Source: Minisyncoccia bacterium (GTDB lineage: Bacteria > Patescibacteriota > Minisyncoccia > SW-4-49-11). Taken from it: 64,000 bases of DNA. Position 1 is the stretch's first letter. Each line of letters opens with the position of its first letter. A model generated the notes under the pieces. It did no database searches and was not told the DNA's origin. It worked only from the letters and a program-made list of their open reading frames with translations. Location: positions 56,305 to 120,304 of the forward strand of contig JBIKWJ010000001.1 of the NCBI GenBank assembly GCA_044356325.1, read 5' to 3'. This document shows positions 1,254 to 62,392 of the stretch, in pieces. A program made the position numbers and the translations under genes.

Positions 1254-1296
1254 TGCGGAGAGAAAGGGATTAGAACTCGTCGCAAATGGGATTTGC
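1254..1296 (-). repeat. Partial duplicate of the tRNA-Ser 3' end (about 25 nt) fused to the hairpin gcaaatgggatttgc. Looks like an att-site remnant.
   Basis: Plus-strand tgcggagagaaagggattagaactc is close to the 3' end of the intact tRNA-Ser at 1521-1545 (tgcggagagagagagatttgaactc). It is followed by gtc and then the perfect inverted repeat gcaaat-ggg-atttgc. Confidence 0.5.
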
Positions 1297-1520
1297 TCCT
1301 TGAAACCACCTCAGTTTCCTCAATACCCCTACAACCCCATCTCGGACACCCACGGTTTCCGACATTCGGAGCAAGCACCTCACTGCCTTCCTCTCTAGGG
1401 GTATTGATTACATCCTCCACGGGAAACTACCGTTTCCCGACCCCTTCCCTGACTTCAAATCTCTCCCAACTGCTACACATAATATAAAAAATTGGGGATA
1501 TACCCCATTTTCTATATTTG

Positions 1521-1609
1521 CGGAGAGAGAGAGATTTGAACTCTCGATAGGTTTGACCCTATACTGCGTTTCGAATGCAGCGCAATAAACCGGACTATGC
1601 GATCTCTCC
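1521..1609 (-). tRNA. tRNA-Ser (anticodon CGA), type II with a long variable arm.
   Basis: Reverse complement is GGAGAGATCGCATAGTCCGGTTTATTGCGCTGCATTCGAAACGCAG...GAGAGTTCAAATCTCTCTCTCTCCG. The 7 bp acceptor stem pairs GGAGAGA with TCTCTCC, the anticodon loop is TTCGAAA, and the T-loop is TTCAAAT. It is followed on the minus strand by the weak hairpin GGGGtatatCCCC and a T-run. Confidence 0.8.
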
Positions 1610-4830: not shown

Positions 4831-6213
4831 TTAGAATTCTCCAAAAGTTTCACTATTGAGATAGGCTCCAATATCCTCAATATCTATTCTCAGTTGTTCC
4901 ATAGTATCTCGATGTCTGATAGTAACAGTTCCCTCAGATAAGGTCTCATAATCTACTGTTACACACCAAGGAGTACCAATTTCATCTTGCCTTCGATATC
5001 TCTTTCCTATTGATCCGGCCATATCCATATCCGCAAGTATCCCCTTTTTACGAAGATTCATATAGATTTCTTTTGCATTTTCAGCGAGGCCATCTTTTTT
5101 CATCAATGGGAGTATAGCAATTTTATATGGAGCAATATGATAAGGGAATTTGAGTACAATACGAGACTCATCACTTCCTGTAACTTTCTCCTCATTATAA
5201 AATTCAAACAGAGAAGATAAGAGAAGTCTATTTACTCCTAGAGAAGTCTCAATCACATAAGGGAAATATTGCTCATTGGTCTCGGGATCGCGATATCTCA
5301 AATCCTTACCACTAAATTTACTATGTTGTCGGGTATCATAGTCAGTACGATTATGAAGACCTTCTAGTTCTTTGAATCCCACAGCTCCAAATTCATAATC
5401 TATATCCCAAGCATCTTTTGCATAAAATACGAGTTTTTCATGTTGGCGAAATTTGATATGCTCAGTATTATACCCCAGATACTCTGTATAGAATTTGTAG
5501 CGATAATCTTTCCAGAATTCATACCATTCATCTTCCTCTCCTGGTTTTACAAAAAATTGTAAATCTATTTGTTCAAATTCACGCGTACGGAAAATATATT
5601 GTTTTACGGTAATCTCATTACGAAAAGCCTTACCAAGTTGCGCAATACCAAATGGTAATTTGCGTCGGCTCGTCTCCTGTACTAATTTCCAATTAACATA
5701 AATATTCTGACAAGCCTCCCCTTTTAGATAAGCAACAGTAGAGTCATCGACAGTTGCTCCAAGATGCGTTTGTACAAGGAGATTGAATTGTTTTACTTTT
5801 GTGAGGGGATTACCATCGGGAGAGAGAATTTTATTGTCCTCAATAACCTTATCTGTCTCTTCTGGAGAAAGACTATCTGCATTATCCATAATACCAGCAT
5901 CCTCAATCAAGTGGTCAGCCCGATAGCGTTTATGAGTAACCGTATCCTCTACCAAAAGATCCGCAAATCCTCCAATATGACCACTTGCTTCCCAAACTTT
6001 AGGGTGAAGGAATATAGCTCCTTCAATTTCTACCACATCATCGCGATAAGTCACCATATAATCTCGCCAGGCTTGCACGAGATTGTCTTTTAATAATTTT
6101 CCAAGAGGTCCAAAATCATAAACCGAAGAATATCCCCCATAAATCTCAGATGAGGGGAATATAAATCCATTGCGATGAGCATATTTTACAATTGTATCCA
6201 GTTTTGTTGACAT
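4831..6213 (-). CDS. glyQS: Glycyl-tRNA synthetase (alpha2 dimeric type).
   Basis: 460 aa. The N-terminus ...GFIFPSSEIYGGYSSVYDFGPLG... is typical of class II GlyRS. Confidence 0.9.
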   Translation of the reverse strand: MSTKLDTIVKYAHRNGFIFPSSEIYGGYSSVYDFGPLGKLLKDNLVQAWRDYMVTYRDDVVEIEGAIFLHPKVWEASGHIGGFADLLVEDTVTHKRYRADHLIEDAGIMDNADSLSPEETDKVIEDNKILSPDGNPLTKVKQFNLLVQTHLGATVDDSTVAYLKGEACQNIYVNWKLVQETSRRKLPFGIAQLGKAFRNEITVKQYIFRTREFEQIDLQFFVKPGEEDEWYEFWKDYRYKFYTEYLGYNTEHIKFRQHEKLVFYAKDAWDIDYEFGAVGFKELEGLHNRTDYDTRQHSKFSGKDLRYRDPETNEQYFPYVIETSLGVNRLLLSSLFEFYNEEKVTGSDESRIVLKFPYHIAPYKIAILPLMKKDGLAENAKEIYMNLRKKGILADMDMAGSIGKRYRRQDEIGTPWCVTVDYETLSEGTVTIRHRDTMEQLRIDIEDIGAYLNSETFGEF

Positions 6214-6276: not shown

Positions 6277-6843
6277 TTACCCCCAATTACCCTCTTCAAT
6301 ATTATCTTTATCTTCTAGGATATCTTCTATAGAACTGAGCAGTTCTTCTTTTTTCTTTTTGACTGCAAGTGCTATTAAGTCTCGCATACTATTAGCATCT
6401 TGTATAAGCATTGAACTTGCATGTTGCCTGTGATATACACCTCCCGCTCGGAGTACATCAGGATAGTCTTTGATACAAATGGTGGGTACAGATTCAAATT
6501 CCTCAATTTCAAGTATGAGAAGTCGTTTATTTTCATATTCTATAGTTTTGATAGTATATCGGGGCAATGGGTCAAGATAATTACTAATATATTGATCAAT
6601 CCAAGTTCTATCTACACTTTCTAAATCTTCAGTACTGAGTCCAGATATCTCTTTTTTATCTGATACTCCAAATATCAACATTCCCCCATTAGGCATATTA
6701 GATATAGCAGCTATATGCTTGGCAAGTTTCACCTTGCGATACTCATCAAAGGTATGCCAATTGAATTCTTGCTTGAAGTCTATATGATTGTCTTCATATC
6801 CTTCGGTGATAACTTTTTGTAATAATTCGGGGGTGTATTTCAT
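6277..6843 (-). CDS. AlbA_2 (Schlafen-like, putative nucleic-acid-binding) domain protein.
   Basis: 188 aa. The motifs IDFKQEF...KHIAAISNMPNGGMLIFGVSDKK match the AlbA_2/divergent AAA_4 signature. Confidence 0.55.
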   Translation of the reverse strand: MKYTPELLQKVITEGYEDNHIDFKQEFNWHTFDEYRKVKLAKHIAAISNMPNGGMLIFGVSDKKEISGLSTEDLESVDRTWIDQYISNYLDPLPRYTIKTIEYENKRLLILEIEEFESVPTICIKDYPDVLRAGGVYHRQHASSMLIQDANSMRDLIALAVKKKKEELLSSIEDILEDKDNIEEGNWG

Positions 6844-6915: not shown

Positions 6916-7602
6916 TTATTTTTTCACTTTCCCAAACTTTAACTTCAAAATTCCAAATAACAACTCAAAGCTAGTTAATACGTTAACATTACTTGTACCA
7001 TTTTTTCTCGCATCAAATTGTATTGGGATTTGGCTAATTTGATAACCCTGATTTTTGGCTTTATATAAAAACTCATAATCAAAACCCCATGGAGTTGGGT
7101 TTAATATTATATCATTCAGAATTTTTTTCTTAAAGACTTTCATTCCTGACTGAATATCATAAGGGAGTCCAAGCAATATTTTACCAAATACTTTTGCATA
7201 TATTCTACTCAGTAGTTTTCTATACCATTTTATATTCTGTACCACCCTATTAGCTACTACAATATCATAATCTTTCATTTTGAATAACATATCATAGAGT
7301 AATTCAGGGGGATATTGCAAATCGGCATCAATCATTGCTACTACCGAGTATTTAGCTTTGATAAAACCTTCTAATAATGACTGTGCCTTCCCCTTTTCCC
7401 CTTTTTTAAGTAATATCTTTAAAGGATATCTCCTATTTAACTTTCTTAATATATCTAATGTTCTATCTTTAGAAAAATCATCAATAATAATAATTTCATA
7501 TCTCACTTTATTTTGAGTCATATTAATATGAATTCTCTTTATTAATTCTTTTACATTTAACTCTTCATTATAGGTTGGAATAATAATAGATAAATACTTC
7601 AT
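6916..7602 (-). CDS. Family 2 glycosyltransferase (Dpm1-like).
   Basis: YLSIIIPTYNEELNV...EIIIIDDFSKDRT and ...AMIDADLQYPPE are DxD-type GT2 motifs. The start is more likely the internal Met MKYLSIIIP than the track start at 7671. Confidence 0.8.
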   Translation of the reverse strand: MKYLSIIIPTYNEELNVKELIKRIHINMTQNKVRYEIIIIDDFSKDRTLDILRKLNRRYPLKILLKKGEKGKAQSLLEGFIKAKYSVVAMIDADLQYPPELLYDMLFKMKDYDIVVANRVVQNIKWYRKLLSRIYAKVFGKILLGLPYDIQSGMKVFKKKILNDIILNPTPWGFDYEFLYKAKNQGYQISQIPIQFDARKNGTSNVNVLTSFELLFGILKLKFGKVKK

Positions 7603-14040: not shown

Positions 14041-14460
14041 TGAATAAGGTGAGAAAAATCCTAGGTAAACTAGGAGTTATGTAGGGGCGACCTTGTAGTC
14101 GCCTGCACTATTATGTCCTCCTTTCTACATACGGTAGACAAGTGGAGGGGGTGGCCGTCAGGCCAGAGGTGGACTAAGCTAAATTCCCCTCTTGAGGGGT
14201 ACCGTCGTTAGATGGTGGGGTGGAATATTTTTGTAACTTGAGTTTGTGCCCCCCTTCGCCTGCCTGCGGTAGGCAGGGAGGGGGAAGCCTGAAAGACGGG
14301 GGTGGATAGAATCAAAACTAAAGTATATTTGATAATCATATTGAATTTGAGAATATAGGTTTTTAATTATCCACACCCACCGCAAGCGGTTCCCCCTCTC
14401 CAAAGAGGGACATAAGACAGGCAACTGAAAGGTCACCCCTACGAAATGCATAATTTACAA
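14041..14460. repeat. GC-rich interspersed repeat, copy A (composite and degenerate MITE-like element).
   Basis: GC-rich insert in AT-rich DNA. It shares modules with the other copies: gtaggggcgacctt, ggtggccgtcaggccagaggtgga, cctgcctgcggtaggcaggga, ttcccctcttgaggggtaccgtcg and aaggtcacccctac. A hairpin ccccgtaatttacgggg plus T-run follows at 14476-14505. Confidence 0.6.
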
Positions 14461-18232: not shown

Positions 18233-18667
18233 ATGTCTGAAAGATTTCTCCCCTATGCTGCAGTTTGGGTAATTGTTTACAATGAAAAGCAAGAAATATG
18301 TCTATTAAGAAGATTTAATACGGGGTATATTGATGGGACTTATACCGTACCTGCGGGACATTTGGAGGAAGGTGAGAGTTTACAACAAGGAGCTCATCGT
18401 GAAGCTCTCGAGGAGGCTGGAATTACTATTACAGATAGTAAACTTGTACATACTGCCTATCGTGAGAGAAGGAATGACAGAATTTATATTGATGCATTCT
18501 TTGAAGTGTTAGATTATCAGGGAGAAGTCTATAATGCTGAGCCCAATAAATGTGATGAGGTGATTTGGGTATCTAAAGATAATTTACCCTCTGCTATAGC
18601 TCCTAGCTTGAGATTTGCTCTGGAGGCTATATTCCGAGGGGAGATTTATTCGGAATATGTGGAGTAG
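18233..18667 (+). CDS. NUDIX hydrolase.
   Basis: Nudix box GHLEEGESLQQGAHREALEEAGI. Confidence 0.8.
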   Translation: MSERFLPYAAVWVIVYNEKQEICLLRRFNTGYIDGTYTVPAGHLEEGESLQQGAHREALEEAGITITDSKLVHTAYRERRNDRIYIDAFFEVLDYQGEVYNAEPNKCDEVIWVSKDNLPSAIAPSLRFALEAIFRGEIYSEYVE

Positions 18668-18675
18668 TTAGAAAA

Positions 18676-18806
18676 GCTCAGTCCACACCCGTCACTTCGT
18701 GCCACCCTCGCCAGCGAGGCCTGCCTGCGGTAGGCAGGGACAGTTATTTATGTCCTCCCTTGGGGGAGGTGTCCCTCCCATATTAATATGGGAGGGACGG
18801 AGGAGA
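18676..18806. repeat. GC-rich interspersed repeat, fragment B (inverted relative to copy D).
   Basis: gctcagtccacaccc...cgccagcgagg...cctgcctgcggtaggcagggacag...gggagggacggaggag is the reverse complement of the internal part of copy D (52650-52800). Confidence 0.55.
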
Positions 18807-36895: not shown

Positions 36896-37660
36896 TTATA
36901 CCAAAGAAGTAAATACAAGCAATCCCAATAATATACTAATTAATACTATTCTAGCTAATATTTTTTTAGTATTTAATGTTCTTAAATAAATATCTCGAAA
37001 TATGGATAGCGAGAATATCAAAAAAGTAGTTAATATAATTGATTGAGTAAGATGTGTTAATGGTAAAACTCTAAGACCAATAAACAACTCAACAATTATT
37101 ATAGCAAGCATAAGAGACATAATACGATAAAATTGACGATTAATTCCATACATCCATAAAATATATAATGAAATATTTAGTGTAGAAATAAAAGCAATAA
37201 TACTCAATAATATCGGTGATATTGTTCCAATAAATATAGACCCGAATAAAAAGGCATAGGTCGAAAAAGATACAAATATACTTCCAGATATAATAACTTG
37301 ACGCATAAATTCTGAATTTCGATACTCTTTATGAGAAATAATATCTTGTACAAAAAATAATCCTATTCCAAGAGCAATTACAATAACAGTAATAGGTACG
37401 GTGTCCCCTTTTATCACCTGCATAAATAGAATTGATGCAAGAATAAAATGCAAAGGAATTTGATAAGCTCTTATTCTATATCGATATAAAAACACTAAAT
37501 ATGCGACTAAGATACATAATCCTAATATTCCAAATAAACTCAATAGTGGCTGTATCTTTTGAATTGTATAAAGATAAGCGGGAAAAAATCCAATGAGCAA
37601 TATAATATTCCAGAAATTTTTCTGAAATATTATTTGTTGTAACCATTTCACATACTGCAT
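36896..37660 (-). CDS. Polytopic membrane protein, unknown function.
   Basis: 254 aa with about 8 hydrophobic helices. Confidence 0.4.
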   Translation of the reverse strand: MQYVKWLQQIIFQKNFWNIILLIGFFPAYLYTIQKIQPLLSLFGILGLCILVAYLVFLYRYRIRAYQIPLHFILASILFMQVIKGDTVPITVIVIALGIGLFFVQDIISHKEYRNSEFMRQVIISGSIFVSFSTYAFLFGSIFIGTISPILLSIIAFISTLNISLYILWMYGINRQFYRIMSLMLAIIIVELFIGLRVLPLTHLTQSIILTTFLIFSLSIFRDIYLRTLNTKKILARIVLISILLGLLVFTSLV

Positions 37661-37663
37661 ATA

Positions 37664-39577
37664 TTATCTCCGAAACTTGATTGATCTTCCTTGTGGCATA
37701 TTGTTTTTTGTAGGTTCTTTAGGTACCATGAGATTTGATTTTACTTCAGATAATAATTCATCTAAAAGTCCATTTACACTTAATTTTTCTTCTTGGCTTG
37801 AGACATGTAAATCTTTTAGGAATTTTTCTTTGATTAAATATTCTGATTCTCCATAAGCAGAAGTTGATCTACTAAATACCTCTTTTAATTTTTTTGCCAT
37901 TATGGGATTTACATATTCTACGGGCTCAGTAGTAGGGATATCTTGCTTCACTTCTGGAATAACTTCTTCTTTTTTCTCCTCTACTTGTGTGGCAGTATCA
38001 GCGAGTTGGGTGGATACAGGAGGAACAATCTCCTCCTTAGGTATAGGATGATTTTCTATTTTCTCATCTATTTTGGGAGTAGCATCTATAGACTGTAATG
38101 GTAGTATAGGAGCGCTATTAGTCGTATCTTTAGATATAGGATTTTCTTGCTCTGATTTTGGATAAACTATAGGATTAGGTTTATTTGATGCATTATATGA
38201 CTTTGATTTATCATTATAGGGTTTAGAATAAGCTCTAGATTTGTTATCTCTGTCTGATGAAACTTTTGCTTGGGTCTCTGAAGATTTTTTAGTATCTATA
38301 TTCTCAATATGAGCTCCTCTCAGTGAAGATTTAACATTTCCATATGTTTGACGAGAAAATTCAATGATTTTGTCCCTATTGGATATCAACTCTGGCTCTG
38401 GATCAGGTAATGTATCCGCACTAAAAGGCTGACTTGTAGCTCCATCTATCATAAGTTTCAAATATACTTTCCATTTTGGAAGATTAACCAAATCCTCAAT
38501 AGTAAGAACCGGGCTAAATTCTCTCTCCATAAATTCAGCATCAGCAGCCCCAATCCTAAATACAATAGTAGTTCCCACATTTCCAAATACGGCACCTCTT
38601 ACAATTTCAGATAATTGCTCTACATATTGATGAGCTAATATAAGACTTAATCGATATTTGCGAGCTTCTGATAATATTTCCGCAAAAGAATCCGTAGAGA
38701 AATTTTGAAACTCATCAATATAGGCATAAAAATCTTGTCGCTCTTCTTCTGGTATATCAACACGACTCATAGCTGCAAGTTGCATTTTGGTAATCATCAT
38801 CGCTCCGAGTAATTGAGCTCCCCCCTCACCCACAGCTCCTTTAGAAAGATTCATAATCAAAATTTTCTTTTGATCCATAATTTCACGCAAATTAAAAGAA
38901 GATTTAGCCTGTCCAACAATATTACGTATAAGAGGAGAAGAAGTAAATTGTCCTACTTTATTTTGAATTGGTGAAATAGCCTCAACCAATAATTTATCCG
39001 TATATCCATCAAATTCATTAAGCCAAAATTGCTTTAATACAGGATCATGCATTTTATACACAATATTAGCTCGGAAATTCTTATCTACGAGAATACGCAT
39101 AATATCAAGCAAAGTACTTTCTTCATTTTCAAGCAAAGTCAATATGGTATTACGAAGAATATATTCAAGTCTTGGCCCCCAAGAATCAGCCCAAATTTTC
39201 TTAAATACTCCTACCAAACCATCGGATACAATATGTCTTTGATTTTCTGGCACATCACCAAGCACATTAAAAGCAATAGGAAATTCTAAATCTTGTGGAT
39301 TAAAATACACCACATCTTTTATACGATGTTCTGGAATATAATCAAGCAAGGCATCTGCTATATCTCCATGGGGATCAACAAAAGCAAACCCTGAACCATT
39401 TCTAATATCAGACACCGCCATATTGAGAAGTAATGAGGTTTTACCCATACCTGTTTTTCCAATAATATGCATATGTCGACGCCTATCATCTCGCTTAATA
39501 CCAAAAAGTCTTCCCTGACCATGAAAATTAGTCTTGGCAATAATGGTGATATCTTTATTTGTTTGATTTTCACTCAT
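37664..39577 (-). CDS. Soluble VirD4/TraG/TraD-like coupling-protein ATPase with a long low-complexity C-terminal tail.
   Basis: 637 aa. Walker A is HMHIIGKTGMGKTSLL and Walker B is YAYIDEFQNF. It also has the TraG/VirD4-type RKYRLSLILAHQYVEQL motif. It has no N-terminal transmembrane helices. The C-terminal roughly 230 aa is Ser/Lys/Pro/Asn-rich. Confidence 0.6.
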   Translation of the reverse strand: MSENQTNKDITIIAKTNFHGQGRLFGIKRDDRRRHMHIIGKTGMGKTSLLLNMAVSDIRNGSGFAFVDPHGDIADALLDYIPEHRIKDVVYFNPQDLEFPIAFNVLGDVPENQRHIVSDGLVGVFKKIWADSWGPRLEYILRNTILTLLENEESTLLDIMRILVDKNFRANIVYKMHDPVLKQFWLNEFDGYTDKLLVEAISPIQNKVGQFTSSPLIRNIVGQAKSSFNLREIMDQKKILIMNLSKGAVGEGGAQLLGAMMITKMQLAAMSRVDIPEEERQDFYAYIDEFQNFSTDSFAEILSEARKYRLSLILAHQYVEQLSEIVRGAVFGNVGTTIVFRIGAADAEFMEREFSPVLTIEDLVNLPKWKVYLKLMIDGATSQPFSADTLPDPEPELISNRDKIIEFSRQTYGNVKSSLRGAHIENIDTKKSSETQAKVSSDRDNKSRAYSKPYNDKSKSYNASNKPNPIVYPKSEQENPISKDTTNSAPILPLQSIDATPKIDEKIENHPIPKEEIVPPVSTQLADTATQVEEKKEEVIPEVKQDIPTTEPVEYVNPIMAKKLKEVFSRSTSAYGESEYLIKEKFLKDLHVSSQEEKLSVNGLLDELLSEVKSNLMVPKEPTKNNMPQGRSIKFRR

Positions 39578-39586
39578 AATACTGAA

Positions 39587-40867
39587 TTACTCATTGATAA
39601 TAGGAAGTCCCATAGGGGGATTTGCTTTTTTAGCTTGTACTCTTTTAAGAGTTGATGTAGTAATTGCTCCTCCTGGAAAATGAAAGATAGTTGTTAATTC
39701 CTCCGTATTAAAAATAAATTTTGTACTTGCAATTTTGCGTTTAATATAACTATCTAACATTAATATTTTACGAAGACGTTCTTTGCCACGAATAGGTCTA
39801 TTAAAAAAATTACTTACTATAGTTATACTATCTTCATTAGGTTTAAAAGAATTAAGCGTAGAATCATTAAATTGCTTTAAACTACCAAGTAATGCTTTTG
39901 GTTGATTTGGGTTGAATCGAGCTTTTGGAGCTACATATACAACTCTTAAAGCTGTTTTAAATCCTGATTTTGTCATACTAAGTTCAATAGTTTCTATGAT
40001 TTTTTGTTTACCTGGGGTAAGATTTTGATTTACTCCAAATTTTTGTTCTTTTGGAGTAGGTGCTGATGGGGCTTTAACAATACCAAATGAAATAAATTCA
40101 ATGATAGGAGCTATATAGATATCTAAGAATGTTCTCTTATCTTCAAAATCTCGATCCAGTAGCTTATCTAATTCTTTTTTACTCACCTTATTCCAGGTAT
40201 CCTCAAGAGGCTCAATAGGTAATTGCATCCATAATTGCTCATCTGGCTCTATCCCAGCCATTACTTCTAATACCTGAGACAATGGATCATTGATATTAGC
40301 ATCAATACTCGGGTCAAGGAATTGTTGATAGGTACGAATTGGGTAAGCATCATTTTTTTCCATACCAAGATCTACCCCAAAAAGATCATATTCAACCTCT
40401 AATGTATCATTAGTAAATCCTTGGGTATAATCAGAGACCTCTATTATTTCTACCTCCGGAAAAGCCCCATATATGCTATTTTCTACCATTTTGCGATATT
40501 TGACATGAGTTCTGATGAGAAAGTGAATATCTCCTCCAATTGATACAATTTCAAGAGAAAACATATCTGGAAGAGCTCCTTCTATATTTTTTTCCCACCA
40601 AGAATAAGAAGTTTGCCCCCCATGTAGGGTAGTCAAAAATTGCTCCATTGATTTAGGCGTTTTTTCTTCTCCTTTTTCTAATACAATTTCAAGTAATACA
40701 AATTGCAAATTATTACGAATCCAATTCCCTCGAATAAAATCAAAATAAAATGTTCTCAGTATAGTCCACAATATTATTGGAAGCCAAATCCACCAAAAAG
40801 ATAGAATAAATTCAAAAATAAAAAATGCCTGATTTGTGTTTACATAAGATAAAGTATCACTAGGCAT
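39587..40867 (-). CDS. Membrane-anchored protein of unknown function, a likely partner of the ATPase.
   Basis: 426 aa. The N-terminal hydrophobic hairpin (FFIFEFILSFWWIWLPIILWTIL) is followed by a large soluble domain. It is separated from the ATPase by a 9 bp gap. Confidence 0.4.
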   Translation of the reverse strand: MPSDTLSYVNTNQAFFIFEFILSFWWIWLPIILWTILRTFYFDFIRGNWIRNNLQFVLLEIVLEKGEEKTPKSMEQFLTTLHGGQTSYSWWEKNIEGALPDMFSLEIVSIGGDIHFLIRTHVKYRKMVENSIYGAFPEVEIIEVSDYTQGFTNDTLEVEYDLFGVDLGMEKNDAYPIRTYQQFLDPSIDANINDPLSQVLEVMAGIEPDEQLWMQLPIEPLEDTWNKVSKKELDKLLDRDFEDKRTFLDIYIAPIIEFISFGIVKAPSAPTPKEQKFGVNQNLTPGKQKIIETIELSMTKSGFKTALRVVYVAPKARFNPNQPKALLGSLKQFNDSTLNSFKPNEDSITIVSNFFNRPIRGKERLRKILMLDSYIKRKIASTKFIFNTEELTTIFHFPGGAITTSTLKRVQAKKANPPMGLPIINE

Positions 40868-40922
40868 ACATTTGTGTCTATTATATGTATCAAGTATATC
40901 AGGAAATATTTTGTTCGTCTAC

Positions 40923-42065
40923 TTACAAAGTTGTCTTTTGTAACAAATCAATAAGCCTAGTATTAAGCTCTTTGCCAGCTGTATGTATATCCTTGTCTGA
41001 GGCATAACTATATACCAAGACTCCTTCATCATATTCACCATCCAAATCTGAAAGAAAATGAGCCATATCAAGTTTAGGGAAATCTAGATACCCTTGTTTG
41101 GTACTATTCCCATTATCAAGGAGAATATGAAGTCCCAAATTATCACTCGGTAAATAAGATAGTATTGTTCGGTATATCAGAGGTATATCCTTAGCCTTAG
41201 TATGAGTTTTAGAAAAATCATGGGGAAAAAGCTTAGAATACGCGTAGCGATGTTTTACTCCCTGAATAGTGATTTCCATCCACTCTAAATGAGCTAGAAT
41301 ACGGCCAATAAGTAATCTCTGACTATCTGTAATAAGACTATTAAGAGCATTATCAATAGCGGTATAATTAGCTCCTAATTCTCTCATCTCAATAATTGCT
41401 TTATCTACTGCTAATGTACGAGATGATAATAATAAAGAGAATAACAGGGCATTACAAATATTTTCATTCCAAGCATTGGGATAATACGTTTTAATATAGT
41501 CAATAATAATCTCAGCATTAGAATTATAGGCTGAATTATATATTGTTTTTTCAGAATAAGGATGCTTTATATCAAAAGCTGATATAGCAAGAGAAGGTGT
41601 ATCAATCAATATATGGGGATAATCTGTAAAATATTGCCCTAATTGAGTCCAGTTTTGTGTATCTAATGTTACTACCAAATCATAAGAATATTTGCCAGGA
41701 GTAATAGTAACTAATTCTGATTGGAATTTTTCTGAAGGTGAATTGAGATAAATTCTAATCTCAGAATCCGTTCTATCATATTTGAGAGATTCAATAGGAT
41801 ATTTGGTAGTATCAATAGAAATTACTGACTCTACAGAACCTTGTAATATTGAGGTTATCATACTAGTATCAATCATAGTCAATACTTGCTGTATATGAGT
41901 ATATGAGGATATAATACTCACTTGTTTTCCCTCAGATTGTAATAAAGAAGCTAAGGCTAGGGCTGAGCCCAATATATGTATTCCATGAATTTCTGGAATC
42001 GGAATTACAATTGACTGAGCATTTTGTAATGTCTCATGCATTAATGTCAAATCTGATACAGCCAT
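40923..42065 (-). CDS. DHH-phosphoesterase-superfamily-like protein (degenerate, probably non-catalytic).
   Basis: 380 aa. The N-terminal ...GIHILGSALALASLLQSEGKQVSII... resembles the NrnA/DHH motif I region, but the canonical DHH and GGGH motifs are not evident. Confidence 0.3.
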   Translation of the reverse strand: MAVSDLTLMHETLQNAQSIVIPIPEIHGIHILGSALALASLLQSEGKQVSIISSYTHIQQVLTMIDTSMITSILQGSVESVISIDTTKYPIESLKYDRTDSEIRIYLNSPSEKFQSELVTITPGKYSYDLVVTLDTQNWTQLGQYFTDYPHILIDTPSLAISAFDIKHPYSEKTIYNSAYNSNAEIIIDYIKTYYPNAWNENICNALLFSLLLSSRTLAVDKAIIEMRELGANYTAIDNALNSLITDSQRLLIGRILAHLEWMEITIQGVKHRYAYSKLFPHDFSKTHTKAKDIPLIYRTILSYLPSDNLGLHILLDNGNSTKQGYLDFPKLDMAHFLSDLDGEYDEGVLVYSYASDKDIHTAGKELNTRLIDLLQKTTL

Positions 42066-42123: not shown

Positions 42124-42417
42124 TTGTGAGATGGGGAGATAGTAGACCAAACAGATTACTATACATTGCTAGCCTAAGGACCCTAGCTTGTCACAAAAAT
42201 TGTCCTCCTTTGCCTGCCTGCGGTAGGCAGGGAGGAGGTGGCCGTCAGGCCGGAGGTGGATAGAGTTCAAGTTTGTATATTATCCACCCCCGCCTTTCAG
42301 ACTCCCCCCTCCAAAGGGGGATAAAAGTAATAATTCTTTTGTTACGACAACATATGCTACCTTAAGGTCGCCCCTACACAAATCTCATTTTGTCTATGAT
42401 GTATCTCATCTTATTCA
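42124..42417. repeat. GC-rich MITE-like element, copy C.
   Basis: Nearly identical to copy E at 57708-58003. The right TIR is ...gtaggggcgacctt...tgtctatgatgtatctcatcttattca and the left TIR is tttgtgagatggggagatagtagacc. The core contains ttgcctgcctgcggtaggcagggaggaggtggccgtcaggccggaggtgga. Confidence 0.7.
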
Positions 42418-42427
42418 AGACAATCTC

Positions 42428-42745
42428 CTAAGCTTGCCTTAATAAATCTCTTATTCCCTGTATAAATTCAGATAATTCTTTATCTAAATTTACATTTTGT
42501 ATAGTGTTCTCTGAATCCAATGCAATTTGTATTATGGATTGATTATTAATAGTAATATATATATATCGTTCTCTTACAAATAATGCCCGAGGATATGATA
42601 TCAGAACAGGAATATAATTGTTTTCTGTATTTACAAAATTAATGATAAAAGATCCATATTGCAATAATTCTTGTGCAATAAATTCATAGCTATCTATATG
42701 ATTATAGGCTTCTCCATAATGTGGTGAGAGATTTGCTGAATTCAT
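42428..42745 (-). CDS. Hypothetical protein.
   Basis: 105 aa with no recognisable family. It is the last gene of a three-gene minus-strand cluster. Confidence 0.4.
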   Translation of the reverse strand: MNSANLSPHYGEAYNHIDSYEFIAQELLQYGSFIINFVNTENNYIPVLISYPRALFVRERYIYITINNQSIIQIALDSENTIQNVNLDKELSEFIQGIRDLLRQA

Positions 42746-52597: not shown

Positions 52598-53009
52598 TAA
52601 GATGAGATACATCGTAGACAAAATGAGATTTGTGTAGGGGTGACCTTACAGTCGCCCGCAAGTCCTCCTCCGTCCCCTCCTATACTTTAGTTTGGGAGGG
52701 GACACCTCCCCCAAGGGAGGACAATAAAACTGTCCCTCGCTGGGCGAGGGTGTCGACGAAGTCGACGGGTGTGGACTGAGCTAATTCCCCTCATTGAGGG
52801 GTGTATCATTAAAAGGCCTATATTCTAAAATATAAATTTATTTTGAACCTATCCACCCTCCCCCTACGGGTACTCCCTCCTAAGGGAGACAAAAGCTCAA
52901 GCTCAAATATATCACAGGCGACTGATAGGGTGCCCCTACATAAGAACAATAGTGGAGGGATAAACCCTCCGCTACGAAAGTATAATTTGTCTACGATCTC
53001 CTCATCTTA
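52598..53009. repeat. GC-rich MITE-like element, copy D (the best-preserved copy, with roughly 27 bp TIRs).
   Basis: Left end tgaataagatgagatacatcgtagacaaaatgagatttgtgtaggggtgacctt. The right end, reverse-complemented, is tgtataagatgaggagatcgtagacaaattatac. The element is about 55% GC in a roughly 30% GC genome. Confidence 0.7.
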
Positions 53010-57651: not shown

Positions 57652-57707
57652 AGATTACGATACTTATATACTATTATTATAGTATATTTTTAGAGTTTTG
57701 TATAGAT

Positions 57708-58003
57708 CTGTATGAGATGAGGAGATGGTAGACACAACAGATTACTATACATTACTAGCCTAGGGTCCCTAGCTTGTCACAAAAATTGTCCTCCTTTGCC
57801 TGCCTGCGGTAGGCAGGGAGGAGGTGGCCGTCAGGCCGAAGGTGGATAGAGTTCAAGTCTTTATCTTATCCACCCCTGCCTTTCAGGCTTCCCCCTCCTA
57901 AGGGGGACAAAAGTAATAATTCTTTTGTTACGACAATATATGCAACTGTAAGGTCACCCCTACACAAATCTAATCTTGTCTACGATGTATCTCATCTTAT
58001 TCA
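57708..58003. repeat. GC-rich MITE-like element, copy E.
   Basis: Left TIR ctgtatgagatgaggagatggtagaca. The right end ...tgtctacgatgtatctcatcttattca is the reverse complement of the copy D left TIR. The internal sequence is almost identical to copy C. It begins 4 nt after the stop of the 58007 gene and ends 57 nt upstream of the ruvB start. Confidence 0.7.
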
Positions 58004-58006
58004 TAT

Positions 58007-58834
58007 CTATTCTTTTAATTGTATCTCGTATATTTGTGGCCAGAGTTTACCAGTTATGAATACGGTATTGGTACTGGCTTTATAGGCGATACCATTTAAC
58101 TGAGCTATATTGGGGTCTTTCTCTCGTATTTGTGAGACGATATCGGACAAATCTAACACCCCTATTATTTCACCATTATCAGGATTAATTTTGACAATTT
58201 GATTAGTCTGACAAATATTGGCGTAGATAAATCCTTTGATATACTCAAGCTCATTGAGAGAATACTGAGCTATATCTCCTCTTTTTACTTCGAGAGTTTT
58301 CACTACTTGGAAATTCTCGGGGCTTAAATAGGTCAATTTATTAGTCCCATCGCTCATAATGAGATTAATCCCATCATTCGTCAATCCCCAACCTTCAGCA
58401 CTGGAGTAAGTAAAAGTATTGATCTCTTTAAATGTCTTCGTATCATAGACAAATCCTTTTTGATTCTTATAGGTGAGCTGATATATTTTATTATTGAGTA
58501 TAGTACTTCCCTCTCCAAAATAGATGTTACGGTCAAGTTCAGCTTTGATATCGATATTACCTGTCTGTAAATCTAATGGACCTAATACGGATTGCGTTTG
58601 AGGCAAATAATCTGGAGAGCCAGTACTTTCATACAGAGTGTCTCCATCAAAAAATAATCCCTGAGTATATGAGTTAATATTATGAGAATATTGCTTAATT
58701 ATAGTATAAGATAATGTCTTTCTTGTAGGTATTTGATACTCTAAATATCCTCTATAGCTAATAATACCCCAAAGTGTACAAATAAAAAATATAGCAAGAA
58801 GAATAGCTATTCTTTTGCGATACCAATATGTCAT
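58007..58834 (-). CDS. Glutaminyl-peptide cyclotransferase (plant/bacterial-type beta-propeller QC), membrane-anchored.
   Basis: 275 aa with ...YTQGLFFDGDTLYESTG... and ...FGEGSTILNNKIYQLTYKNQKGFVYD... motifs of the Glu_cyclase_2 family. Confidence 0.6.
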   Translation of the reverse strand: MTYWYRKRIAILLAIFFICTLWGIISYRGYLEYQIPTRKTLSYTIIKQYSHNINSYTQGLFFDGDTLYESTGSPDYLPQTQSVLGPLDLQTGNIDIKAELDRNIYFGEGSTILNNKIYQLTYKNQKGFVYDTKTFKEINTFTYSSAEGWGLTNDGINLIMSDGTNKLTYLSPENFQVVKTLEVKRGDIAQYSLNELEYIKGFIYANICQTNQIVKINPDNGEIIGVLDLSDIVSQIREKDPNIAQLNGIAYKASTNTVFITGKLWPQIYEIQLKE

Positions 58835-58838
58835 ATTC

Positions 58839-59387
58839 TTATTTCTTATCTAATTTCTTGAGAATAGTTTGTAATAATTCTAATTGTTGAGTCTGAATAG
58901 TGTAGAGACTCTTAATTTGCTCATCAAATAATAAATCAATTTTTTGGTGAAGTCCCCTCACCTCAATTTCTGCTTTGAGATTAACAAGATAATCATTTTC
59001 TGCTCTTTTCCTATCTTTTTCTTCTTTACGATTTTGACTCATCATAATAATTGGAGCTTGCAGAGCTGCAATACAAGACAATACCAGATTCATCAGGATA
59101 AATGGATAAGGGTCAAATCTGAATACTCCCGTCATCACAATATTAAATATAATCCAAATAGCAAGAAGAGTGAGAAAACTCATAATAAATTTCCAACTAC
59201 CTCCAAATTGAGCTACTTTATCAGATAAAGATTGCCCACGGGTAAGTGTCTCCATAGGTGGATGGAGAAGATGTTTAAGAATAAGCCTCTCTTCTTTAAT
59301 ACTATCTTCTACAATAGTATTAAGATCTTGTAAATATTTTTTTTGCTCTTCTACAATTGCATTGATTTGTTTTTGATCTGGGCTCAT
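58839..59387 (-). CDS. DUF1003 domain membrane protein.
   Basis: 182 aa with ...GGSWKFIMSF...FRFDPYPFILMNLVLSCIAALQAPIIMMSQNRKEEKDR...NLKAEIE.... Confidence 0.65.
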   Translation of the reverse strand: MSPDQKQINAIVEEQKKYLQDLNTIVEDSIKEERLILKHLLHPPMETLTRGQSLSDKVAQFGGSWKFIMSFLTLLAIWIIFNIVMTGVFRFDPYPFILMNLVLSCIAALQAPIIMMSQNRKEEKDRKRAENDYLVNLKAEIEVRGLHQKIDLLFDEQIKSLYTIQTQQLELLQTILKKLDKK

Positions 59388-59404
59388 ATAATTTGTTATT
59401 AGTT

Positions 59405-59732
59405 GGCTTTATCATTCTCTAAATGCTTTGTTCGAATGCAGGGACTCGGTCACAAGTAATTTACCTGACGGTAAATTCTCGCTACCCCGTCTCGCCGTGT
59501 TCGCCTTGCGCATAGCACAAACTCACACATGGCTCCGACTTTCTCGCCCTGACTAAAGCCAATAAATTGGCTTTATCATTCTCTCGCTTCGCTGTTCGAA
59601 TGCAGGGACTCGGTCACAAGTAATTTACCTGACGGTAAATTCTCGCTACCCCGTCTCGCCGTGTTCGCCTTGCGCATAGCACAAACTCACACATGGCTCC
59701 GACTTTCTCGCCCTGACTAAAGCCAATAAATT
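59405..59732 (-). repeat. Two tandem copies of a 164 bp unit. Each unit contains an 18 nt duplicate of the tRNA-Gln 3' end plus a 9 bp-stem hairpin.
   Basis: Unit 1 (59405-59568) and unit 2 (59569-59732) are identical except for the 10 nt aaatgctttg versus cgcttcgctg. Each contains ttcgaatgcagggactcg, which is the tRNA-Gln 3' end. A third partial unit merges into the real tRNA. Confidence 0.7.
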
Positions 59733-59758
59733 GGCTTTATCATTCTCTCGCTTCGCTG

Positions 59759-59829
59759 TTCGAATGCAGGGACTCGAACCCCAATTGCTGGTGCCAGAAA
59801 CCAGTGTCCTACCGTTAGACGACATTCGA
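59759..59829 (-). tRNA. tRNA-Gln (anticodon CTG).
   Basis: Reverse complement is TCGAATGTCGTCTAACGGTAGGACACTGGTTTCTGGCACCAGCAATTGGGGTTCGAGTCCCTGCATTCGAA. It has the U1:A72 pair typical of tRNA-Gln, and the anticodon loop is TTCTGGC. Confidence 0.75.
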
Positions 59830-59882
59830 TTTACAACTGTTAGTATACCTTATTTAGGCATAGTATTCAAGAATACTAAATA

Positions 59883-60701
59883 CTATTGAGCTTTTTTACT
59901 CGTTTTTGTTTTGGACTTAGTCTGAGATTTTTTGGGTTTTATTAATGTTTGCCCAATGGTAAGAGTATAGGGAGCATCTATATCATTTGATTTAGCAAGT
60001 TCTTTCCAACTTATATCAAAAAATTCAGCTATTGTTTCTATAGTATCTCCAACCTGCACAATATAATCATTTTCCGTACTTTCTTGATCTGGAATATGTA
60101 ATATTTGTCCCTCTATGAGACTATAGGGAGCAGTTATATTATTAACTTTAGCAAGAGTTTTCCAATCCAATCCGAATTGCTTTGCAATGCTATCAATAGT
60201 ATCCCCTATTGATACTATGTGTTCAGACTTAGATATAATATGAGTACTATTATCTAAATTCAGATGTAAATCAAGGGCAATAGATTCAATAGATGATTCT
60301 GAAATAGTAGTTACTGATATTTCATTTGACTGTGTCTGATCTATTAATTTTGTAGAATTTTGTGTATGAGTCAATGGAGCTGGAATAATAGTAATTCTTG
60401 GCTCTACTAGTGAATCCGGATGAGCAAGATGTCCTGGGAATACTTTTATTTTTTGCCCAGATTCCACTGAATATGGAGCTTTTATTTTATTCACTCGAGC
60501 CATAATTTTCCATGGAAGCCCTAATTTCTCAGATATACTTTCTAAATCCTCATCCTCACCTACAATATATTCCTCAGTCCATAGACGACGATATCTATAT
60601 CTCAATAATACTCGTAAAAATACAAATAACCCGAAAACAATCAAAAGGGCAATAAGAATGACTAGCTGTATATTGGTATCTATATCTGTATAATATATCA
60701 T
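59883..60701 (-). CDS. Membrane-anchored protein with three LysM peptidoglycan-binding repeats.
   Basis: 272 aa with an N-terminal transmembrane helix and three roughly 45 aa LysM units (YIVGEDEDLESIS..., HIVSIGDTIDSIA..., YIVQVGDTIETIA...). Confidence 0.75.
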   Translation of the reverse strand: MIYYTDIDTNIQLVILIALLIVFGLFVFLRVLLRYRYRRLWTEEYIVGEDEDLESISEKLGLPWKIMARVNKIKAPYSVESGQKIKVFPGHLAHPDSLVEPRITIIPAPLTHTQNSTKLIDQTQSNEISVTTISESSIESIALDLHLNLDNSTHIISKSEHIVSIGDTIDSIAKQFGLDWKTLAKVNNITAPYSLIEGQILHIPDQESTENDYIVQVGDTIETIAEFFDISWKELAKSNDIDAPYTLTIGQTLIKPKKSQTKSKTKTSKKAQ

Positions 60702-62038: not shown

Positions 62039-62059
62039 TATATAAAACTATGTTTAAAG

Positions 62060-62325
62060 GTGGAATTTTGGTCTTGCAACATTCCCCTCTTGAGGGGTAC
62101 CGTCGGTAGACGGTGGGGTGGAGTATTTTGCAACTTGAATTTCTGTCTCCCTTCCTGCCTACCGCAGGCAGGTGGAGGGAGTACCCGCAAGGGGGAGGGT
62201 GGATAAAGTTTAATCTACAAATCTTATGTAAGAATTTTAATCTAATTATATTGTGCTAGCAATCCACCTCCGGCACGTTGTGCCACCTCCTCCCTGCCTA
62301 CCGCAGGCAGGCAAAGGAGGACAAA
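62060..62325. repeat. GC-rich interspersed repeat, copy G (rearranged, no TIRs).
   Basis: Carries the ttcccctcttgaggggtaccgtcg...ggtggggtggagtatttt module shared with copy A. It has two copies of cctgcctaccgcaggcagg. Its terminal section is the reverse complement of the copy C/E core (ttgtcctcctttgcctgcctgcggtaggcagggaggaggtgg). Confidence 0.55.
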
Positions 62326-62392
62326 ATAAGTATCATTAAAATATCTCCCTTTTGAAAGAATGGCCAGAGGGGGATTTTTTAGCCCCATAATT

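Follow-up and report, generated by a model that had tools for sequence, protein, structure and literature searches.

Tycheposons of Prochlorococcus stack at tRNA genes, where they are parted by partial tRNA copies and have tandem-repeat junctions (bioRxiv 10.1101/2020.12.28.424599). Serial integration at the tmRNA gene was described for the ssrA-linked islands of Dehalococcoides (PMC3146451), and accretion of ICEs and IMEs, along with cis-mobilizable elements, has also been reported (PMC5704250). The array analyzed here, which lies at the 3′ end of tRNA-Gln in a 64-kb stretch of DNA (the window), resembles these tRNA islands in that its units are stacked after an intact tRNA, are parted by copies of the tRNA 3′ end, and are gained, lost or duplicated between strains, with tandem-repeat junctions and decay of old copies. 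Unlike the islands, its units measure 105–145 nt instead of kilobases, are non-coding, and have no integrase within or near them. The main unit, designated type A, also differs in having a conserved RNA-type fold and in being more conserved than the host genes, and several units begin with a segment complementary to the tRNA-end copy that terminates them.

At the RNA level, the 3′ external transcribed spacer of the E. coli glyW-cysT-leuZ operon is an sRNA sponge. Type A would resemble such tRNA-spacer sRNAs if it is a structured RNA cut from a tRNA 3′ trailer by tRNA-processing nucleases; unlike them, it is a copy-variable, exchangeable cassette bounded by tRNA ends. In plant mitochondrial transcripts, tRNA-like structures known as t-elements serve as processing signals for RNase P and RNase Z (PMC1920247). 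The array also shares with t-elements a T-loop and acceptor 3′ strand that end a non-tRNA segment, a 5′ partner that in several units is predicted to close an acceptor-like helix, and a position co-oriented with and adjoining a real tRNA. Unlike t-elements, the array units contain no complete T-arm and go unrecognized by tRNA covariance models, and the end copy is dispensable in some lineages. A relative of t-elements is tmRNA, whose tRNA-like domain is built from both of its ends, 5′ and 3′. REP/BIME and Rickettsia palindromic elements are GC-rich palindromes. Like these and the yeast GC clusters (PMC4478555), the cassettes are short GC-rich hairpins in a genome of 33% GC that appear as indels between strains, and modules of cassette types B, C and D are dispersed. 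Type A differs from palindromic mobile elements in being restricted to a single locus at one tRNA, in having no terminal inverted repeats, and in its G-U-rich strand bias.

The original prediction of a tandem 164-bp array after tRNA-Gln proved to be real. TRF detected an array at 59403–59776 with a period of 164, 2.3 copies, 97% matches and a score of 706, and both ARAGORN and Rfam (tRNA, 56.1 bits) identified tRNA-Gln, anticodon CUG, on the minus strand at 59759–59829 (lower end given as 59758/9). The re-used tRNA segment, thought at first to be 18 nt, measured 19 nt: the 19-mer CGAGTCCCTGCATTCGAAC comprises the 18 nt that end the tRNA (T-loop C56 to the discriminator) plus one base. It occurred three times exactly on the minus strand, at 59758–59776 (copy 0), 59594–59612 (copy 1) and 59430–59448 (copy 2), with an expectation of 0 in 100 shuffles. 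Unit 1, a type-A cassette on the minus strand at 59594–59757 (covariance model, 205.6 bits), consists of a 27-nt trailer (59731–59757), a 118-nt cargo (59613–59730) and tRNA-end copy 1. Its supported hairpins are P1 (59714–59742), P2 (59701–59712), P3 (59660–59695) and P4 (59612–59650), and both hairpins that had been claimed for the unit were present. The non-tRNA cargo is indeed GC-richer than its surroundings (51% versus about 33% GC in the window), with the earlier figures of 120 nt and about 48% GC corrected to 118 nt and 51%. Unit 2, also of type A and on the minus strand (59430–59593), ends in copy 2 and is identical to unit 1 at 164 of 164 positions; contrary to what had been stated, the complete units do not differ in a 10-nt linker. 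The difference between AGCGAAGCGA and AAAGCATTTA in this block is confined to the partial third copy of TRF, which is the native tRNA trailer AAAGCATTTAGAGAATGATAAAGCCAA (59403–59429, minus strand), the first 10 nt of which are an allele unlike the cassette trailers. AGCGAAGCGA occupies the native-trailer position in four related loci (L003, L004, L042 and L051), and in strains with this allele the direct repeat is 46 nt long.

We compared about 45 related Paceibacteria loci at the tRNA-Gln(CUG) 3′ end, in which the tRNA-Gln gene itself is essentially invariant. The array states ranged from empty (L019, L027, L039 and L066) and A (many loci) to A-A (the window, L003, L008 and L012), A-B (L001 and L007), A-C (L018 and L030), A-C-A (L061, on one gap-free 155-kb contig) and C alone (L044 and L051). 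Unit counts thus vary among relatives, with one- and two-unit alleles as well as other cassettes, and type A is patchy in its occurrence. The cassettes at tRNA-Gln are 105–145 nt in size, GC-rich, and unrelated among types. Each is closed off by a copy of the tRNA 3′ end (16–19 nt), with precise junctions regardless of the flanks; for type C the identical core spans 16 nt (GTCCCTGCATTCGAAC), and type A was followed on its right by at least five different sequences, each starting directly after ...CGAAC. The two A copies of L061 are 96.6% identical, each being nearest to a different lineage. L041 and L065 combine a decayed terminal tRNA-end copy (5 of 19 positions altered) with intact hairpins, and a decayed copy likewise occurs in L051. 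The repeat in the window is one allele of a clade-wide cassette array and not a private tandem repeat.

A similar array is borne by tRNA-Ser(CGA) in the window (1254–1609, minus strand), where the tRNA (1520–1609) is followed first by a terminator hairpin and then by a cassette of about 215 nt that is rich in GC. The 5′ end of this cassette repeats the acceptor 5′ strand GGAGAGAU, and its 3′ end holds a degenerate copy of the T-arm and acceptor at about 1256–1286. In the related locus L074, a further copy stands after the next, protein-coding cassette. The duplication at tRNA-Gln had been counted as the third instance of its kind; only this one other case was found in the window, and tRNA-Leu, tRNA-Val and the two tRNA-Met genes showed no 3′-end duplication of their own when the window was searched with 16-mers at up to three mismatches.

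Type A is a 145-nt non-coding cassette 3′ of tRNA-Gln(CUG) in freshwater Paceibacteria (Patescibacteria), and its four hairpins are kept via compensatory changes. It also contains a fourfold CGAGA motif. In an alignment (A2) of 16 distinct type-A sequences, the 44 core pairs were 99.1% paired, compared with 34–40% in slid controls, and the covariation score was 0.158, compared with at most 0.039. Both sides had changed in seven pairs (0–1 in the slid controls), a total that rises to nine once L065 is added; allowing for kinship among the sequences, the compensatory changes represent perhaps 7–10 independent events. Of the 145 positions, 25 are altered in L065, including 15 in paired columns, and 44 of 44 pairs are still intact there, six by double changes; in L056, the tip of P3 is shorter and altered in sequence and is still paired. 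The pairing bias is that of the tRNA-sense strand, in keeping with transcription: the sense strand was 99.1% paired versus 89.9% for the antisense strand, with 67 G-U cells versus two A-C cells. Hairpins of one DNA strand could, in principle, give similar pairing patterns. Type A is 83–100% conserved versus 70–84% for the adjoining protein genes, type A together with the tRNA is 88–90% identical where the flanking genes are 70–84% identical, and the unit length is constant at 164 nt (160 in L056) across species whose genes are just 70–84% identical. With this fold, we regard type A as a candidate structured non-coding RNA.

No described RNA family corresponds to the unit: searches of the locus and the window with Rfam 15, at gathering scores and at E-values up to 10, found tRNAs only. 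Rfam matches below threshold, to whalefall-1 (14369–14413) and to leader-peptide models (near 30.8 kb), have no bearing on the array. The type-A covariance model matched only the tRNA-Gln locus in 321 kb of related DNA, in agreement with BLAST, and the window likewise contained no type-A copy outside tRNA-Gln. The coding potential of the unit is limited to spurious ORFs that overlap the tRNA (59646–59825, minus; 59731–59889, plus). Several other identities were considered and rejected. As a degenerate tRNA-Gln copy, type A would offer, past the 19 nt, just GGGGU and a 4-bp acceptor match, with no likeness to a D-arm or anticodon arm, and the tRNA model is silent. A riboswitch or leader for the next gene was rejected because species vary in what follows the array (DUF1003, Glu_cyclase_2, DUF308 or a convergent gene). 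CRISPR, TIGR and type III antitoxin arrays were also rejected on their anatomy, as the units are 164 nt long and identical, with no short spacers and no associated protein, and most strains have a single unit.

A sigma-70-like promoter, TTGAAT-17-TATACT, was located on the minus strand at 59842–59870, about 12 nt upstream of tRNA-Gln; it is a consensus match that is not significant alone. Diverged species retain its −35 and −10 hexamers around a different spacer sequence, and this candidate promoter probably drives tRNA-Gln and the cassettes. Type A is on the same strand as tRNA-Gln, with which it is probably co-transcribed. A DUF1003 membrane-protein gene (58839–59387, minus strand; PF06210) starts 15 nt past the trailer. 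No terminator-like site was present between tRNA-Gln and this gene, and the DUF1003 gene may therefore be co-transcribed with tRNA-Gln as well.

The reading that we favor, and consider somewhat better than even, is that type A is a structured RNA cassette after tRNA-Gln, placed there by recombination at the tRNA end and duplicated in the window. Type A would be transcribed from the tRNA promoter within the tRNA 3′ trailer and act as a structured RNA. The cassettes would be discrete modules, inserted or exchanged by recombination at the repeated tRNA end; their junctions have the form expected of a crossover between a cassette-borne and a chromosomal tRNA-end copy, and the recombining enzyme would be encoded elsewhere in the genome or be a host function. 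Direct repeats derived from the 3′ part of the tRNA flank the units, 19-nt copies bound every unit, and presence, absence and order vary with precise junctions. The earlier proposal of serial integration at a tRNA-Gln att site was borne out as to the stacked cassettes, the tRNA-end bounds and the precise junctions; the integrase and the larger parent element that it implies were not encountered. Pfam searches of 40 of the larger ORFs revealed no integrase or recombinase in the 64-kb window, and no recombinase occurred among the precomputed Pfam annotations of genes within 3–10 kb of the arrays. No free or larger element carrying a cassette or the 19-mer was found among viral contigs and phage records (blastn against the phage records and scans of IMG/VR, with type A, type B and the 19-mer), which leaves a phage or satellite attP origin unsupported. 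No inverted repeat of the core type was seen at the junctions by inspection. A DNA circle of 124–164 bp is a sterically awkward substrate for integration. The second unit in the window would be recent, the product of unequal crossover or replication slippage at the 19-nt repeats or, equivalently, of an excised unit that was inserted again. For two identical units, slippage or unequal crossover, which had also been proposed, is the simplest origin: the units are identical and in register, the 19-nt repeat is already present in the one-unit allele, and one-unit contigs have flanks that are 100% identical.

A rival reading is an assembly artefact, in which the assembler looped twice through a single true unit, a possibility that the original prediction had itself raised. 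The one- and two-unit contigs are otherwise 100% identical, contigs are broken inside the repeat in L005, L013, L014 and L020, and scaffold gaps lie at the repeat in L003 and L062, all of which would suit an artefact. Assemblers, however, usually collapse tandem repeats instead of expanding them. The junction of cargo, tRNA end and AGCGAAGCGA requires reads across two tandem units, because the native trailer differs from the cassette trailer, and independent assemblies, from at least three samples, contain it: those of the window, L008 and L012, which differ in sample and are otherwise 100% identical, and scaffold L003; L061 carries two diverged A copies on its gap-free contig. Same-haplotype assemblies with one unit (L002/L011, L006 and L009) have flanks 100% identical to those of the two-unit contigs. 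Since the tandem junction recurs in independent assemblies, at least two units are real in some populations, with the exact copy number lying beyond short-read assemblies, and we regard an artefact as extremely improbable. Another reading takes the units for inert scars, non-functional remnants of larger integrative elements, such as prophages or islands, that once entered at tRNA-Gln and were later deleted nearly in full, with the tandem due to neutral slippage. Direct repeats of the tRNA 3′ end, stacking, presence and absence, and the decayed copies of L041, L065 and L051 are typical of old integration sites (bioRxiv 10.1101/2020.12.28.424599), and repeats of this sort also enclose a foreign GC-rich gene of 1.5 kb at tRNA-Ser. 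Scars, on the other hand, sit poorly with a type-A length that stays fixed despite gene identities of 70–84%, with conservation above that of the neighboring genes and with compensatory substitutions, and no parent element was found for type A in the searches described above; the scar reading seems to us quite unlikely. We give slightly less weight still, as a poor prospect, to a DNA-level mobile repeat (REP/MITE-like), in which the hairpins would be kept for a transposase acting on single-stranded DNA, as in REP/RAYT and IS200/IS605, and the tRNA-end copies would be target duplications. GC-rich hairpin elements abound in the intergenic DNA of the genome, and the near-identical strain L001 lacks one of about 267 nt that the window contains; modules of cassettes B, C and D recur in these elements, and the mobile GC clusters of AT-rich yeast mitochondrial DNA offer a precedent (PMC4478555). 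Type A, however, is not dispersed as those modules are: neither the window nor the 321 kb of related DNA contained a further copy. Terminal inverted repeats are absent from it, Pfam searches of 40 of the larger ORFs in the window turned up no transposase, and the excess of G-U over A-C (67 versus 2) is more in line with RNA than with DNA. A "target duplication" of 19–46 nt is also far longer than those of known transposons.

A further possibility could hold alongside the favored structured-RNA cassette and concerns how such an RNA would mature. Pairing of the cassette 5′ end with the tRNA-end copy at its terminus would form a helix resembling the acceptor and T-stem, at which RNase P and RNase Z would release the cassette from the polycistronic tRNA-Gln transcript, possibly followed by addition of CCA. 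Each unit contains the 3′ part of the T-loop, the 3′ strand of the T-stem and the 3′ strand of the acceptor; CGGGG, 36 nt away on the far side of a hairpin, could supply the T-stem 5′ strand, and by inspection CGGGGU[35-nt hairpin]CGAGUCCCUG of type A looks like a T-arm that has taken up an insert. Most type-A cassettes contain a 5′ strand able to pair with the acceptor 3′ strand, the predicted closing helix being CGAAGCG/UGCAUUCG. So does type C, with a predicted perfect helix of 10–11 bp (AAUGCAGGGAC/GUCCCUGCAUU, z −5.7 and −6.4), and so does the tRNA-Ser cassette, whose predicted helix GGAGAGA/UCUCUCC equals the acceptor stem of tRNA-Ser. Two substitutions in the decayed copy of L041 keep the pairing (pair 8–155 as U-A, pair 7–156 as G-U), the cassette boundaries coincide with the tRNA 3′ processing site, and CCA is absent from the encoded tRNA-Gln; t-elements are a documented precedent (PMC1920247). 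Against such a processing role, the Rfam tRNA model detected nothing in the units even at E-values up to 10, the type-A closing helix can no longer form with the trailer allele of L056, AAAGTATTTG, and in L041 and L065 the four hairpins are still constrained despite a decayed terminal copy. For type B the fold is not significant (z −1.0). Another way of closing the unit, GAAUG/CAUUC plus CAGG/CCUG, is just as possible, and the closing-helix columns are almost invariant, so covariation is uninformative there. We consider this tRNA-like handle possible but doubtful. Small RNAs with a tRNA-like 3′ end had been proposed from the outset; covariation, strand bias and the lack of a terminator between tRNA-Gln and DUF1003 speak for the RNA part of that idea, and the handle part is tentative. 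More speculatively, and in our view unlikely, the arrays at tRNA-Gln and tRNA-Ser would belong to an undescribed, integron-like system of Paceibacteria in which integrase-less mini-cassettes, mostly structured RNAs of 105–215 nt and occasionally a gene, are gathered and reshuffled at the 3′ ends of particular tRNA genes. The tRNA-end sequence of 16–19 nt would then be a recombination site in the DNA and also, when paired with a matching 5′ segment of the cassette, an acceptor-helix-like handle by which tRNA-processing enzymes free each RNA from the tRNA transcript.

The Candidate Phyla Radiation has tiny genomes with few recognized mobile elements or regulatory RNAs. Type A adds a new, covariation-backed structured RNA candidate in many freshwater Paceibacteria. 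Gene-free mini-cassettes that are exchanged and amplified at a tRNA 3′ end would extend the model of tRNA-seeded islands down to units of about 100 nt, and the locus raises the question of which enzyme moves them. Cassette order and copy number provide a simple population marker. If the tRNA piece also directs RNA processing, a recombination site in the DNA and a maturation signal in the RNA would be tied together at this locus.

TRF analysis of the window returned a single long-period array (59403-59776; period 164, 2.3 copies, 97% matches) next to the tRNA-Gln(CUG) gene (59759-59829, minus strand). On the minus strand, a promoter-like TTGAAT-17-TATACT element is followed by tRNA-Gln, two 164-nt units, the native trailer and a DUF1003 gene starting 15 nt past that trailer; the -35 and -10 hexamers were retained in diverged species, and the interval from tRNA-Gln to DUF1003 was without a terminator-like site. 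Each unit comprises a 27-nt trailer, AGCGAAGCGAGAGAATGATAAAGCCAA, a 118-nt cargo of 51% GC, and the 19-mer CGAGTCCCTGCATTCGAAC, which corresponds to tRNA-Gln from T-loop position C56 to one base beyond the discriminator. This 19-mer was present three times in the window, against zero expected by chance, which together with the TRF result bore out the original prediction of a tandem 164-bp array 3' of tRNA-Gln whose units re-use the tRNA 3' end. The predicted 10-nt linker difference also exists, but only the native trailer, which forms the partial third copy, shows it; the full units were identical at 164 of 164 positions. The difference is allelic: AGCGAAGCGA is found at that position in other strains also, giving a direct repeat of 46 nt there.

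Beyond the repeat, the window matched the one-unit contig Ga0453946_0000001 at 100% identity across 12.3 kb and 6.8 kb (L074, L002; L numbers denote related loci or contigs compared with the window). The two-unit contigs L008 and L012, which are partial and derive from other samples, were likewise 100% identical to it. Several samples yielded the assembled junction cargo-tRNA end-AGCGAAGCGA, which requires tandem units because, in this lineage, native and cassette trailers are of different sequence. The identical flanks and this junction indicate that the duplication is recent and real, with an exact copy number that is not readable from short-read assemblies.

About 45 loci with the same tRNA-Gln were gathered by exact-protein look-ups of the flanking genes, by an 18-mer scan run once over a metagenome collection and once over a genome collection, and through contigs with homologues of the downstream Glu_cyclase_2 gene. 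The comparison of unit counts across strains, as originally proposed, revealed arrays that vary from empty to A-C-A, where A is the 145-nt non-coding cassette of the window (164 nt with its terminal tRNA-end copy), B is a GC-rich cassette of 116 nt unrelated to A, and C is a third type of ~105-119 nt. The array was empty, with the next gene directly after tRNA-Gln, in L019/L022, L027, L039 and L066-68. A alone was found in L002/L006/L009/L011, L004, L024, L026/L058-60, L038, L042, L047, L054/55, L056, L041 and L065; A-A in the window, L003 (with a scaffold gap), L008 and L012; A-B in L001 and L007; A-C in L018 and L030; A-C-A in L061, L062 and L043+L045 (one MAG); C alone in L044 and L051; and other GC-rich inserts, without a terminal tRNA-end copy, in L033, L036/L069 and L049. 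This distribution is at odds with relatedness: L039, with genes 83-87% identical to those of the window, was empty, L051 (88-93%) carried C only, and type A was present in more distant species (70-84%). In the empty-site genomes L066 (3049-3075), L019 and L027, the Glu_cyclase_2 ATG lies 1 nt past the 19-nt tRNA end (...CGAAC-A-ATG), so tRNA-Gln and Glu_cyclase_2 are almost certainly co-transcribed there.

A tRNA-end copy stood directly after every A, B and C cassette, that of type C being its own variant, GACGTCCCTGCATTCGAAC. One cassette type preceded at least five different sequences, with the join always right after ...CGAAC; such varied right-hand contexts, with only 16-19 nt of common homology, argue for a site-directed process behind cassette placement. 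Type C junctions retained the chromosomal CGA at the left and the cassette GAC at the right, which, judged from sequence, is the exact expectation for a putative crossover between cassette-borne and chromosomal copies within their shared 16 nt. In L061, a gap-free 155-kb contig with the order tRNA-A1-C-A2, the two type A copies were 96.6% identical to each other; A1 was nearest to the L030 copy (97.9%) and A2 was identical to the L043 copy. This gap-free contig, with copies nearest to different loci, shows that stacking is real and that local duplication is not always its source.

Type A, including its terminal copy, was 164 nt long everywhere except in L056 (160 nt), where the tip of hairpin P3 is 4 nt shorter and of other sequence, with pairing kept. 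Across 16 distinct aligned sequences, the four-hairpin core (44 pairs) was 99.1% paired, compared with 34-40% when partners were slid by 1-3 columns; pairs changed on both sides numbered 7 versus 0-1 in the slid controls, and the covariation score was 0.158 versus at most 0.039. The most diverged copy, L065 (82.8% identity), retained 44/44 pairs, six via double changes, with 15 of its 25 differences in paired columns; its addition brought the pairs with compensatory changes to nine, representing perhaps 7-10 independent events because the sequences are kin. Pairing was 99.1% on the tRNA strand versus 89.9% on the other (67 G-U versus 2 A-C cells). When the window was compared with species sharing only 70-84% identity in the neighbouring genes, type A plus the tRNA reached 88-90%. 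Searches for the unit elsewhere, by BLAST and a type A covariance model over the window and 321 kb of related DNA, found it at the tRNA-Gln locus only, and the suggested Infernal search gave it no identity, with no Rfam family matching. Type A appears to represent a new RNA family. It contains four copies of the pentamer CGAGA, mostly in unpaired stretches (window 59594-59757; alignment columns 9, 48, 100, 113, 146), and the tRNA-end copy begins with CGAGU; the pentamer could serve in protein binding or reflect the cassette's assembly history.

The tRNA-Ser(CGA) gene (1520-1609) heads another array (window 1254-1609, minus strand; L074:10660-12560). Next in order come a terminator hairpin, a GC-rich cassette of 215 nt with a core homologous to type C, a promoter with a GC-rich 431-aa gene and terminator, a further copy of the ~30 nt that end the cassette together with the tRNA-Ser trailer, and AT-rich restriction-modification genes. 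The cassette repeats the tRNA-Ser acceptor strand at its 5' end and carries a degenerate T-arm/acceptor copy at its 3' end, and ~30-nt direct repeats, AAATCCCATTTGCGACGAGTTC(G)TAATCCCT, bound the 431-aa gene. This array indicates that tRNA-end-bounded cassettes also occur at a tRNA gene other than tRNA-Gln and that such a cassette can encode a protein. The 431-aa protein is a member of a family found across Patescibacteria; it had no Pfam, PADLOC or PDB match, and its confidently predicted fold had no convincing structural neighbour.

Besides the cassettes, the window has at least seven intergenic elements that are GC-rich and full of hairpins, including those of 50-56% GC at 14098-14446, 18656-18785, 42172-42297, 52617-52908, 57755-57881 and 62058-62336. 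They have modules in common with cassettes B, C and D, among them CTGCCTACCGCAGGCAG, GGCCTGACGGCC, CCTCCCCCAAGGGAGG and GGTGGAT/ATCCACC, and some carry terminal inverted repeats, TGTAGGGG(C/T)GACC...GGTCGCCCCTACA. Elements 42140-42430 and 57652-58010 were ~92% identical across ~290 nt. A ~267-nt element in the Glu_cyclase_2/RuvB spacer (~57700-57970) is absent in the near-identical L001 (7380-7492), where the spacer is 110 nt versus 355 nt in the window, and the inserted segment terminates in an inverted copy of its left-flanking sequence. The elements look like an undescribed MITE/REP-like family. Within one of them (14369-14413, minus strand), Rfam gave a sub-threshold match to whalefall-1 RNA, at 28.9 bits against a gathering score of 37. 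Near tRNA-Gln, a conserved module, GGGAAAGGGGTCGGGAAAAC-GGKA-GTTTTCCCGTGGAGGAAGG...GGAGYAAATCCCATTTRCGAC, was seen in either orientation (L018:~5000-5140, minus; L036:~7230-7390; L044:~3080-3250; L033:~6560-6770); it shares homology with the cores of type C and the tRNA-Ser cassette, and could be an independent RNA motif.

The window (33% GC) encodes core functions (RecR, DnaB, aminoacyl-tRNA synthetases, DnaK, PBPs, SecDF, MreBC and RuvB), and the contigs near-identical or related to it originate from freshwater metagenomes and MAGs labelled Candidatus Paceibacteria, Paceibacterota or Parcubacteria, with one labelled Saccharibacteria. This identifies the window as part of the chromosome of a Patescibacteria (CPR) bacterium and not as phage. 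A VirD4/TrwB-like coupling-protein homologue with weak Pfam matches (37664-39577, minus strand) is flanked by three ORFs (254, 426 and 380 aa) without a Pfam match (region 36896-42065, minus strand); this region could belong to machinery for DNA transfer or uptake and would then bear on cassette movement between cells.

Serial att-site integration, slippage duplication and small RNAs with a tRNA-like handle, the three origins originally envisaged, each proved partly right. Variable stacked arrays and precise junctions favour integration, but neither Pfam searches of 40 of the window's larger ORFs nor the gene tables for 3-10 kb around the arrays turned up an integrase, a transposase or a reverse transcriptase, and neither the cassettes nor the 19-mer appeared in any phage record or viral contig scanned. 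Tycheposons integrate serially at tRNA genes with only a partial tRNA copy between elements, and show tandem-repeat junctions alongside older remnants (bioRxiv 10.1101/2020.12.28.424599); the cassette arrays match this pattern, as they do the accretion of elements at att sites (PMC5704250; PMC3146451), although the tRNA-Gln units, unlike those elements, are ~100-150 nt and gene-free. The tRNA-Gln array would be a variant of tRNA-seeded integration hot spots, and homologous exchange between relatives, with tRNA and repeat as arms, could be a route of cassette spread. For the identical units of the window, unequal crossover or slippage between the 19-nt repeats is the simplest origin, and re-insertion of an excised unit would give an equal product; the A1 and A2 copies of L061 do not fit local duplication. 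The conserved, strand-biased fold speaks for a small RNA. We consider it rather probable that type A is a structured RNA cassette, probably co-transcribed with tRNA-Gln, that would have been installed at the tRNA-Gln 3' end via recombination at the repeated tRNA end, as part of a clade-wide variable array recently duplicated in this strain.

That the tRNA-end copy would in addition be a processing handle, in the manner of plant mitochondrial t-elements processed by RNase P and RNase Z (PMC1920247), is a doubtful extension, because the evidence is mixed. Closing helices that pair the cassette 5' end with its tRNA-derived 3' terminus were predicted for type A (CGAAGCG/UGCAUUCG), for type C (a perfect 10-11 bp AAUGCAGGGAC/GUCCCUGCAUU enclosing three hairpins, one GAAA-looped; fold z = -5.7 and -6.4), and for the tRNA-Ser cassette, whose GGAGAGA/UCUCUCC is the tRNA-Ser acceptor stem itself; in the decayed copy of L041, two substitutions maintain pairing with the 5' strand. 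However, the units were not recognised by a tRNA covariance model, the terminal copy is decayed at 5/19 positions in L041 and L065 with the hairpins still constrained, the 5' partner is absent in L056, and type B lacked a significant fold. Beyond the structured, recombination-installed cassette that we favour, an integron-like array of small RNA genes, with the tRNA end serving as both recombination site and processing handle, appears unlikely.
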